Shown here one piece after another: positions 6,001 to 9,000 of a stretch of 54,312 nucleotides of DNA (position 1 is the stretch's first letter; every line of letters starts with the position of its first letter). Origin of the DNA: Candidatus Enterousia sp. (GTDB lineage: Bacteria > Pseudomonadota > Alphaproteobacteria > Rs-D84); NCBI GenBank assembly GCA_045614725.1, contig JAZLDK010000052.1, positions 1 to 54,312 of the forward strand, given 5' to 3'. A program made the position numbers.

Positions 6001-9000
6001 CAGGAACTAAAAGTTGAAACCGCAAACTTTCCACACATGCTTTTTGATGAATTTGGATATAATATCAAGGTATTCGGCCAAAAATCATGGAATGGGGTCG
6101 CCACATTTTCCAAGTATTCTATCGAAGACATCACCCTTGGCATGCCAAATTATGCGGACCCAAATGCGCGCTTTCTTGAATGCGTGATTGATGGACGCGT
6201 TCGCCTTATAAATGTATATATGCCAAATGGTGACACGGTCGAATCCCCAAAATTCCCATACAAATTGGAATGGATGCGCGCATTCACAGACTATATATCC
6301 CAGTATCTGGACAGTCCCGAGCCTGTAATTATCGCCGGCGACTTTAATGTTGCAATCCAGGACCGCGATATATGGAAGCCCAAAAATTATGAAGGCATCG
6401 CAATTTCCGCACCGGCCGCCCGCGAAATCATGAACCAATGGCTGGCCAGTGGCTGGACCGATGCATGGCGCGCCCTGCACCCCGACACGGTGGACTATAC
6501 ATGGTATGGATATCGCGGCCGCGACACGGTCGGCAACAAACAAGGCCTGCGCTTGGATTATTTCTTGTGCAACAAAAACGCCACCACAATGATAAAAAAT
6601 TGTGAAATAGATATGGCGCCACGCCTTGCGGACAAGCCCACCGACCACTGTGGATTGATGCTGGAAATAAAATAAACAAAAGCACTTGATTTTTATTTCA
6701 TATTGTATATAATCATGGGGCTATGAATTTGTTGCGGGCATAGTACAAAGGCTAGTATGCAAGCCTTCCAAGCTTGAAATGCGGGTTCGATTCCCGCTGC
6801 CCGCACCAACGATTGGGCGTGCGCCGGAGTTGGAGAGCCGGGGCAGACTGTAAATCTGTTGGCTTAAGCCTGAGGTGGTTCGAATCCACCCACTCCCACC
6901 AGAAAAAGACCGACCCTTGTGGTCGGTTTTTTTATGGTCTGGACGTGGTGAGATGAGAACCACTGGTTCGGGGCGCCAGTTGGTGAAAACAAGCCATACT
7001 GGCGCAGTTTGAACCTTACGTAGCGAAAGGGGCCCATGGAGTGTAAGCGAACATGGGAATCAGACAATCCACCCACTCCCACCAAAACACAACCCCCCTT
7101 TTTGGGGTGTTTTGTTTTGGATAAATGGAGCGGGTGGATCGGTCAGAGCGCCAAGCGCATTTATGCGCTAAACGAAAATGAAATTTTCGTGCATAAGTTG
7201 GCGCGCATGACCAATACGCAGATGAACAATTAGCAACACCGCAAAAGCGGATATGTTTAATAGAGTTTTTGCATCTGGTGTTGGTTATTGTTTATCAAGG
7301 CGCACCCACTCCCACCAAAAGATACACCGCACTGTGAAAGTGCGGTTTTCTTTTTGTTTTCTAATAGTTTTAAATGTTCGAAAATAGACTATCCAAAAAA
7401 CACTAATTTTTACCAATCTTCGAACATCCCGGATTTCCAAGTTTTTGCTCCGTTCGAATCCACCGAGGCGGTTTTTAATTTTAGCATAATAAAATTATGT
7501 GATATAATTTTATCAACAAAAGGGTAAAAACATGAAAAAAACTAATTCATACAAAGGTCTTGATGTATTTCGTTGGATTATATTATTGCCCGCTATATGT
7601 TTTACATGGTTGGTTTGCACAATGATTTGTGCATGGATTGAACACTTTTTTTACAATCCTGCACTATGGTTCGGAAATGTTTTTATTACTACTGTTTTTA
7701 TTATTTTAGATTTATTGATATTACCAACTATCGCTGTTTTCTTTGTATCAAGAATTATTGCGCCAAAATATAAAAAGCATGTCGGACTTTTCGCCATAGT
7801 ATTGTGTGTTTTATGGTTTGCATTCTTGATTTATGGGTTAAGCCATGTGGCATATTAATTTAACCATTTTCCTTTTTATTTATATAGTCCGACAAATCAT
7901 CATTAAACCAGTCCATCATTTGTATTTCCCCTTTATTTATGATTTGAATTCATCCCTCTTATAACACAGAAAAGAATTTATTTACACACCAATTCATGTT
8001 ATACTGTCCTATCATGAATACAACCAGTTTACTTGTTTACTTATTTGCGGTCATTTGTATTGTAACTGTCATTTATTTCTGGCTGCTTGGCACAGAATAT
8101 TGCTGGTGTGCATTTATAAAAAAACAAGCACCATTTGTGGCCAGTTCACGCAACCAACGCCACGCTGTCGCAAATCTTATAAACACCAAATACAAAGATG
8201 CAAACACCATTATTGAAATCGGCTCTGGCCAGGGCGGATTTGCGCGTTATATTTCACGCCATACAAACAAGACGGTCACTGGGCTTGAAAACATGCCTTT
8301 TTGTGTTTGCGTTGCCAGATTTTTTAATTTATTTACATTTGGCAAAACAAAAACCGTATTTTGCGATGCTTTTTCATGGCTTGAAAAACATCCAAATAAA
8401 ATTGATATAGCAATTGCCTATCTAGGTCCAAAACCAACAAAAAAACTATTAAAACATCGTAAAAAAATCAAAGTATTAATTTCACTAAACTTTGAAATTC
8501 CAAACATAAAACCGACCCAGATAATAAACCTTAAATCGGGCCAGGTTAAATTCGGCGGAAAAAAATATCCGCACAAATTATTCATTTATGAATTTCGGTA
8601 ATTATTCTTCTATTTCAACACTGTCAATAAATGTGCGATTAACAGATTCCTGTTTTACGGGCACAAAGTCACTGTTTGTTATGGTATTATCATCCTGGGC
8701 CACGATTGCTACAATTTTACTTTTCTGAACCGATTTAGCCTCGGCCTGGTTTGCGCCTATTATATCGCTGCTGTATTTACTTTGCAGACGCACAGGTATT
8801 TGAATATAGTTATCTGGATCAATCCCATCGGTTTCAAGTTCCATTGCATCTGCATCGGAAACTTCACCCTGCTCTATACTATACAAAGGCGCGGCAAATG
8901 TTGTTGGCGCCGATTTAATTTCGCGTGGCGCGCCACTGCCATCCAATGCCATAATGCGCAACCCGCGTTGACTTTCACCATTTGGCATCAACCGGAACAT

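Follow-up and report, generated by a model that had tools for sequence, protein, structure and literature searches.

Structured, tRNA-matched modules of RtT-like design lie downstream of tRNA genes in Candidatus Enterousia

In a 54,312-nucleotide (nt) stretch of a Candidatus Enterousia sp. assembly (GenBank GCA_045614725.1, contig JAZLDK010000052.1, positions 1 to 54,312; hereafter the window), a tRNA-Tyr gene is followed by two non-coding modules, A (6935-7084) and B (7127-7317), which lie between copies of the tRNA-Tyr 3' tail. Modules of this kind are selected, structured and of tRNA sense; they carry ends copied from the neighbouring tRNA and differ in number and content from one genome to another. 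We regard them as a large, diverse, tRNA-matched variant of the design of RtT, the repeats of the Escherichia coli tyrT-tyrV operon (Rfam RF00391), with population-level turnover. An earlier note made from the sequence had described the tail copies as the footprint of tyrosine integrases. The observation itself is confirmed and the integrase reading is not upheld; overall, the earlier interpretation is partly supported, and the E. coli precedent was not recognised in it.

The modules belong to a tRNA-Gly/tRNA-Tyr operon. A promoter-like site (6686-6713, + strand; TTGATT-16-TATAAT, 10/12 matches) precedes tRNA-Gly(TCC) (6734-6808, +) and, six bases 3' of it, tRNA-Tyr(GTA) (6815-6901, +), both called by ARAGORN and Rfam, with the end of tRNA-Tyr at 6901 as the earlier note had placed it. 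This is the sole match of a + strand promoter scan upstream of the modules; none was found between 6713 and 7481, the next match (7481-7508) standing ahead of the downstream open reading frame (ORF). The last 19 nt of tRNA-Tyr, from A58 to A76 (AATCCACCCACTCCCACCA, 6883-6901; the source copy, X0), recur exactly at 7066-7084, and the last 15 nt (CACCCACTCCCACCA) recur exactly at 7303-7317. Three tail matches on the + strand compare with 0.19 expected, and 0/100 shuffles reach three. The repeats start in the T-loop (A58), run to CCA and delimit two separate inserts of 164 nt (6902-7065) and 218 nt (7085-7302), and every tail copy is followed by a distinct hairpin and T-run (stems 6908-6924, 7092-7108 and 7326-7346), in broad agreement with the earlier note. 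All three hairpin sites score as terminators on the minus strand too. The tRNA-Tyr itself scores low in Rfam (38.5 bits) and has a C4-U69 mismatch in the acceptor stem. Since this tRNA body was also found in those related metagenome loci whose sequence was read, the mismatch appears to characterise the clade rather than to signal decay.

Each unit follows the order terminator, X' (an inverted, imperfect copy of the tRNA 3' end), structured core and X (a direct copy of the tRNA 3' end up to CCA). In A-type units this becomes a terminator made of A-tract, hairpin and T-tract, then X', a 3-5-nt loop, a forward T-arm piece (positions 51-57), a core of ~100 nt, A58-A76 and the next terminator. Unit A of the window opens with such a terminator (T1, 6902-6934, +; terminator scan), followed by X'(A) (TGGTCTGGACGTGGTGAGATGAGAACCAC, 6935-6963, +), which pairwise alignment identifies as a degenerate reverse complement of tRNA-Tyr positions ~51-76, the region from which X' derives in A-type units generally. 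Where TC would face G57-A58, X'(A) has GA; A-type X' sequences usually carry GA or another non-complementary pair there, and GA is present in most A frames. The hairpin P1, GAACC-ACT-GGTTC, and the forward T-arm residues 51-57 (TGGTTCG, 6964-6970) were read from the sequence at 6957-6970 (+); the T-arm piece of A-type units is GGTTCG, or GGTCCG behind a tRNA-Met with that T-loop variant. Core A (6971-7065, +; nhmmer E = 9e-29, fold with compensatory pairs) sits between T-loop positions 57 and 58, and X(A) (7066-7084, +) is the exact A58-A76 copy.

B-type units have a near-perfect X' (positions 59-74), a core of ~165 nt and an X of positions 62/64-76, so that they carry 13-15 nt of the tRNA end, and their cores are not at position 57/58. 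In the window, unit B consists of its terminator T2 (7085-7120, +; terminator scan and inverted repeat), X'(B) (GGAGCGGGTGGAT, 7127-7139, +), which is 12/13 complementary to ATCCACCCACTCC, core B (7140-7302, +), a second structured core family (nhmmer E = 1.5e-43), and X(B) (7303-7317, +), an exact copy of tRNA-Tyr C62-A76 that pairs with X'(B) and closes the module (helix 1). The terminator beyond it (T3, 7318-7355, +) is the original tRNA-Tyr terminator, found directly 3' of CCA in genomes with an empty site.

The first insert is homologous, with 81% column identity, to 30318-30525 on the minus strand, where a unit A lies behind tRNA-Met(CAT) (30526-30600) and comprises a terminator, X', core (30363-30463), X (30347-30365) and a further terminator (30318-30346). 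The earlier note had seen this second location and had overlooked how the copy ends: with the final 19 nt of the tRNA-Met upstream of it (30347-30365, minus), not with Tyr sequence. At position 55, where nearly all tRNAs have U, this tRNA-Met has C (T-loop TCCGAAT), and the module behind it reproduces the C55 variant (GGGTCCG).

Matching of module ends to the local tRNA extends across the clade. A scan with the core-A motif, taking one genome per species, gave 30 loci (L001-L030) from metagenome-assembled genomes labelled Candidatus Enterousia or uncultured gut Alphaproteobacteria, together with one contig binned as Alistipes. A co-oriented tRNA was found ~100 nt upstream of core A in 25/25 loci that extend far enough upstream. 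Ten tRNA species precede the core: Met, Glu, Lys, Arg(TCT), Arg(CCT), Gly(CCC), Ser(TGA), Ser(GGA), Asp and Tyr. In most of these loci X is the exact last 19 nt (A58-A76) of the local tRNA, including tRNA-specific T-loop bases (AATCC, AGTCC or ATTCC). When X' was aligned to the reverse complements of the tRNA 3' ends, the cognate tRNA ranked first or second of 10 for 22/26 distinct X' regions, and X'(A) of the window ranked its cognate first. The window Tyr trailer and the L026 Glu trailer align block for block, with A cores 96% identical and B cores clearly related, while all six tRNA-derived segments differ. Core B follows tRNA-Tyr and tRNA-Glu; it lies 3' of module A at the tRNA-Glu loci L013, L022 and L026, persists as a deleted remnant in L003, and occurs behind tRNA-Tyr in many metagenome loci.

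The cores behave as selected RNA-like structures. Both A modules of the window fold far better than shuffled sequences (z = -5.4 and -4.3). In the consensus drawn from 27 A copies, a long irregular hairpin is accompanied by a CCCAU/AUGGG helix that a variable hairpin caps, and 9 pairs show compensatory changes. For core B, 16 copies support five helices with 33 pairs, 25 of which have changes on both sides; 96% of cells are paired, compared with 81% in shuffles and ~40% when partners are slid, and 0/500 shuffles were as good. The closing helix of B, X':X, has 8 pairs with 91% of cells paired, and 7 of these pairs have changed on both sides. On the tRNA-sense strand, G-U outnumbers A-C by 74:3 in core A and by 17:4 in core B, which indicates that it is the tRNA-sense (+) strand that folds, as RNA or as single-stranded DNA. 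Across species-level genomes the cores are 90-100% identical while X' and the terminators drift; a 101-nt Met core is 100% identical in five such genomes whose X' and terminators differ. An antisense RNA from the minus strand was rejected given the excess of G-U over A-C on the + strand and the lack of a minus-strand promoter match. A hammerhead-like reading of GAUGAG was set aside since the flanking consensus does not fit (judged by eye only), as was a permuted (two-piece) tmRNA, for which the T-arm and CCA matches are at chance level (12.8 and 20.9 bits, compared with a gathering score of 47) and ARAGORN called no tmRNA.

Comparison of tRNA-Tyr loci shows that the modules come and go. A metagenome scan with the 25-nt tRNA-Tyr tail recovered 61 loci, of which 38 carry modules, 9 are exact empty sites, 10 have no module and 4 are cut by contig ends. 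At the nine empty sites the T3 ortholog begins at +2 after CCA and is followed by the inverted repeat and pseudo-T-arm seen at 7374-7478 of the window; the empty site foreseen in the earlier note, tRNA-Tyr running directly into the ortholog of the 7326-7355 terminator, is thus present in related genomes. Occupied and empty loci together place the unit of terminator, X', core and X between the tRNA CCA and the original terminator. Nine of the ten other module-free loci have different terminators, and the tenth (L061) has a module-type terminator directly before the inverted repeat. The 38 module-bearing loci contain B modules, modules of a third, GC-rich core family, E, or both, and in one case a short A-like core, in orders that include E-x-T3, B-x-T3, B-x-E, E-x-E-B-x-T3 and E-x-B-x, where x is an X copy. 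There are at least three core types (A, B and E). In this comparison, core A at tRNA-Tyr is confined to the window, apart from the short A-like core (L094), which the profile missed. At tRNA-Glu loci, B is present in L013 and absent in L012 and L019, with breakpoints at X. Chimeras from recombination between short repeats were found in L078 and L071, and tandem duplicates with identical terminators in L010, L011 and L006. Synteny with the upstream exonuclease III gene was a less useful route to such sites: its orthologs (81-89% identical) were adjacent to the tRNA pair in 0/7 loci, and since the gene is not syntenic with the pair it gave no empty-site test, whereas the tRNA 25-mer scan did. 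Outside the clade, a GC-rich metagenome contig with a different tRNA-Tyr body (L084) has a terminator palindrome that reaches 11-12 nt into the acceptor 3' strand (TGGTGGGAGTGG), which indicates that the X-terminator-X' arrangement exists there as well; the 1.1 kb downstream showed no further exact copy of this tRNA end.

Within the frames, the cores behave as exchangeable cassettes. Core subtype is independent of tRNA identity: the window Tyr core shows 96% identity to the L026 Glu core and 82% to the window Met core, the Arg-CCT core and the L006 Gly core are 96-98% identical to Met cores, and the L011 Arg-TCT core is 95-97% identical to Met cores, while the orthologs of Gly or Arg-TCT cores in other species reach just 89-90% identity. 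Identical cores adjoin different X' sequences, and three other loci (L077, L099 and L078) share the window Tyr frame (GGTGAGATGAGAACCACTGGTTCG) but have an E core where the window has A. The window also holds an empty frame (7430-7478, +), a pseudo-T-arm (GTTCGAATCCACC, 7452-7464) followed by a small terminator; the pseudo-T-arm is conserved in 12 further loci. At the orthologous site in L047 (9000-9160) a 70-nt E-type core lies exactly between GTTCGA and ATCC, and it is absent from the same site in L063 (1085-1215), L088 and the window, with almost no flanking microhomology. The junction GTTCG(A)/core/ATCC is shared by ten tRNAs and the pseudo-T-arm site. The exchange between frames and cores, together with the 70-nt insertion or deletion, indicates that the cores are discrete units bounded by T-loop position 57/58.

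By analogy with RtT, we consider it fairly probable that the modules are read-through RNAs from the tRNA promoter in which X' and X form a tRNA-like helix with a free (N)CCA tail, released by tRNA-processing enzymes. Read-through from the tRNA-Gly/tRNA-Tyr promoter would transcribe the modules, and X' would pair with X, clearly so in B, into a helix resembling an acceptor/T-stem with a free (N)CCA end; in A- and E-type units the tandem GA would lie at the X':X junction. The tRNA-processing enzymes could then excise the module RNA at that helix, as reported for RtT, while recombination between X copies would expand and contract the arrays. For the acquisition of X and X' matching a new tRNA, the candidate routes are T-loop-specific insertion of a core into a frame already present, hairpin-templated correction along X-T-X'-core-X, or a guided mechanism.

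Several observations weigh against this reading. The X':X duplex of A-type units is weak, with energies barely better than those of non-cognate pairs, so that a closing helix is convincing for B only; a strong closing helix in A-type modules was accordingly rejected, and we keep X'(A) as a probable degenerate, cognate-specific relic or junction strand. Mismatches to the upstream tRNA, 1 to 8 in number, occur in the X of L009, L019, L022, L024, L026 and L029, and the X of L025 also carries a 1-nt deletion; exact identity to the tRNA is therefore not obligatory. A strong intrinsic terminator follows every X, so read-through expression may be low. The G-U bias is equally compatible with single-stranded DNA of the same strand, and recombination between X copies accounts for loss and duplication but not for the first arrival of a module at a new tRNA. 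Finally, neither the RF00391 covariance model nor nhmmer detects homology between the modules and RtT, which leaves the parallel with E. coli resting on architecture.

Part of the data also suits a reading of the cores as miniature non-autonomous elements in the style of IS200/IS605 PATEs or REP sequences, moved as single strands by HUH proteins or through RNA, a reading that partly overlaps with the read-through one and that we hold possible, if rather unlikely. Insertion into the T-loop sequence GTTCG(A)^ATCC would be strand-specific and without target duplication, and the fold would serve mobility. IS200/IS605 PATEs and REP/RAYT repeats are small, strand-specific and hairpin-rich; their insertion, 3' of a short fixed sequence, duplicates no target, and their excision can be precise. 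The modules share with them small size, hairpin-rich sequence, a fixed orientation that is strictly that of the tRNA, insertion 3' of a fixed 4-5-nt sequence, lack of target duplication and precise empty sites. The 70-nt E core exactly between GTTCGA and ATCC in L047, the replacement of the A core by E in the window Tyr frame, the spread of core subtypes irrespective of tRNA identity and the identical cores beside different X' sequences all fit such mobility, and to this extent the miniature T-loop elements proposed in the earlier note gain from the data. They account for only part of it. Module copies are confined to tRNA-derived frames rather than dispersed at any target site; each of the 30 core-A matches either is linked to a tRNA or is truncated by the end of a contig, and a candidate autonomous partner adjoins none of them. 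The scan of the 20 larger window ORFs revealed no HUH or other transposase, and tblastn with an approximate IS200 TnpA query, a weak test, gave no match in 698 kb of sampled loci. An intact GGTTCGAATCC...CCA frame adjoining tRNA-Tyr was not found in the 61 loci, and B cores are not at 57/58. GC skew stays below zero across the window (-0.09 to -0.26), with modules on either strand, which speaks against a replication-strand bias. Distinctly unlikely, in our judgment, is that the cores are tiny mobile elements of a new class, made of RNA or single strands, that home to the T-loop of tRNA-derived DNA, or that the module RNAs guide a protein of the TnpB/TldR type, or another that depends on guide RNA, to the cognate tRNA gene. 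In the putative guide layout, a structured scaffold would precede a 3' segment of 18-19 nt that has the sequence of the tRNA gene and, in the genome, adjoins a TTCGA motif; homing or guiding, if true, would explain why the ends must match the local tRNA. An improbable alternative is a cis-acting switch, in which X' pairs either with the upstream tRNA 3' end across T1 or with its own X across the core, so that read-through transcripts set whether the tRNA 3' end is free to mature, possibly through a ligand of the core. The succession X, terminator, X', core, X is a classic three-segment attenuator layout, X, T and X' together form a long imperfect palindrome, and Rfam classes RtT as cis-regulatory; X'(B) also conserves the GGAT that pairs with positions 59-62, all four of which are held only by the upstream X, as the X of B starts at C62. 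Yet the terminator precedes X', so most transcripts would be without it, X'(A) is too degenerate to rival tRNA folding, and tandem arrays and units distant from a tRNA are hard to accommodate.

That the modules are a functionless by-product, with template-switching at a terminator hairpin inverting the tRNA end and unequal crossing-over multiplying the units, we regard as very improbable. The unrelated, GC-rich L084, in which the terminator palindrome by itself covers 11-12 nt of the acceptor strand, and the tandem duplicates with identical terminators (L010, L011, L006) are what such a process would leave, but the cores stay 90-100% identical between species-level genomes as X' and terminators drift, compensatory changes preserve five B helices, and the same TC-to-GA change is found in E. 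coli RtT, there as a conserved tandem GA. A retro-origin was also considered and set aside. A reverse transcriptase would copy 18-19 nt before reaching m1A58 of a tRNA, the length of X, with X' resembling a primer-binding site, an attractive match; no reverse transcriptase gene was seen, and E. coli, which is not known to carry m1A58, has the same design. Hardly tenable is the reading that the modules are almost wholly deleted islands or prophages integrated in tRNA-Tyr by tyrosine integrases, which the earlier note had offered first. Williams reportedly described in 2002 the attL/attR direct repeats of islands in tRNA genes and their T-loop sublocation, and the likeness is genuine: direct repeats of the tRNA 3' end from the T-loop to CCA bound the inserts, and relatives have both occupied and empty sites. 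However, the inserts are only 164-218 nt and without integrase or cargo. A Pfam search of the 20 larger window ORFs found housekeeping families only (ABC transporter, MnmE, exonuclease III, UvrB, AspRS, GyrB, pilus and secretion genes, LpxK), with two ORFs lacking a family match and no integrase, phage or other mobile gene, and the core-A motif had no match in viral contigs; an integrase or prophage remnant was rejected on these grounds. Every unit has an inverted tRNA copy, foreign to attachment (att) sites, the same conserved, structured 100-nt core stands behind ten tRNAs with matched ends and is under strong purifying selection, and E. coli RtT, of the same layout, is a processed RNA.

Further copies and fragments of the modules were seen in the window and in the sampled loci. 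A third, diverged unit, C (44403-44600, +), lies behind tRNA-Met (44326-44402) and has a terminator, X' (~44449-44478), a P1 hairpin (GAACCACT-GAAAAA-AGTGGTTC), a core and, at its end, a 13-nt partial X of its tRNA-Met (44571-44583) fused to a terminator. The A, B and E profiles do not match unit C, and they find no further copy elsewhere in the window. The inverted repeat after T3 (ATGTTCGAAAAT ... ATCTTCGAACAT, 7374-7427, +) has arms ~30 nt apart and is kept after tRNA-Tyr and tRNA-Glu trailers at many loci. In L022 and L026, module A is preceded by a segment that ends in TCCAG(A/C)TGGGGCTGCCA, with two mismatches to the tRNA-Glu tail, and no tRNA-Glu is detectable; this extra segment implies that arrays can hold at least three units. 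Behind tRNA-Asp, L003 (5300-5345) retains X' and the left arm of P1 alone, an A-unit deletion remnant cut inside P1, at the tRNA where L025 has a full A-type unit. The same L003 contains a segment of ~800 bp (6276-7165) with an apparent minus-strand ORF, judged by eye, edged by a duplicated terminator and inverted repeat and by a 13-nt copy of the tRNA-Glu end, which suggests that larger cargo can sit in such arrays. The G+C content of the window is ~0.43 and drops to 0.33-0.37 past ~42 kb, around a 1548-amino-acid ORF (45286-49932). Many module matches lie within a few hundred bases of a contig end, and one is on the Alistipes-binned contig; these repeats appear to break assemblies and may mislead binning. 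For annotators, short tRNA 3'-end repeats are not always integrase scars, and in metagenome assemblies such repeats coincide with contig ends.

Among known systems, tRNA-like processing handles occur on non-tRNA transcripts such as MALAT1 mascRNA and on RNase P minihelix and external-guide-sequence substrates. The X':X helix of B, in which the 3' strands of acceptor and T-stem are paired to a complement, with its free (N)CCA tail would have the geometry of an RNase P minihelix substrate; the helix of A-type modules differs in being heavily degenerate. The closest parallel is RtT. Egan and Landy are said to have described the 178-bp repeats of E. coli tyrT-tyrV in 1978. The 178-bp repeats, or RtT, of this operon are attributed to Bosl and Kersten 1991 as cited in PMC3318445, and RtT is reportedly released by processing of the tyrT transcript (PMC3318445; bioRxiv 10.1101/2024.07.17.603846), with a covariation-supported helix framing its tandem GA (review, PMC8250186). 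Although RtT has been on record in E. coli since 1978-1991, the function and origin of the design are still unknown. A literature search found no earlier description of an RtT-like family spanning several tRNAs. The Enterousia clade offers a natural comparative series, with at least ten tRNAs, at least three core families, empty sites, exchangeable cores and many variants, which makes testable the structural parts, the tRNA-like end as a processing or recognition handle and the arrival of modules at new tRNAs.

The E. coli tyrT-tyrV locus, as a positive control, gave four RF00391 matches at 133-138 bits, one between the tRNA genes and three after tyrV. Each unit there combines an X' (GCGGGGAAGGAT) in which TC has likewise become GA, AAGGTTCGA in forward orientation, a core and a 19-nt X, whose CCA is the annotated end of rttR. 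Both systems are found immediately 3' of a tRNA gene, share its orientation and may occur as tandem copies; the E. coli units and the A units of the window end in the last 19 nt of the tRNA, CCA included, and both have a degenerate inverted copy of the tRNA 3' end with GA for TC opposite G57-A58. The forward GGTTCGA piece ahead of the E. coli core has its counterpart in the T-arm piece of A-type units, and the curated RF00391 consensus structure includes an X':X closing helix, a feature that in the modules is convincing for B and weak for A. At the level of sequence, neither 6600-7600 nor 44300-44700 matched the RF00391 covariance model at E <= 10, six E-type loci gave no match to it at E <= 1, and the module A profile had no nhmmer match in the E. 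coli tyrT locus. Membership of the modules in RtT or another Rfam family was rejected, as Rfam searches gave no match, and with the architecture shared in the absence of homology we file the window modules as RtT-like in design and outside RF00391. The differences lie in diversity and turnover. Whereas the E. coli repeat was seen in this comparison behind tRNA-Tyr only, the Enterousia modules stand behind at least ten tRNA species with matched ends, their cores fall into three or more unrelated families, and an intrinsic terminator of its own accompanies each unit; exact empty sites and cassette-like exchange of cores are documented for them.

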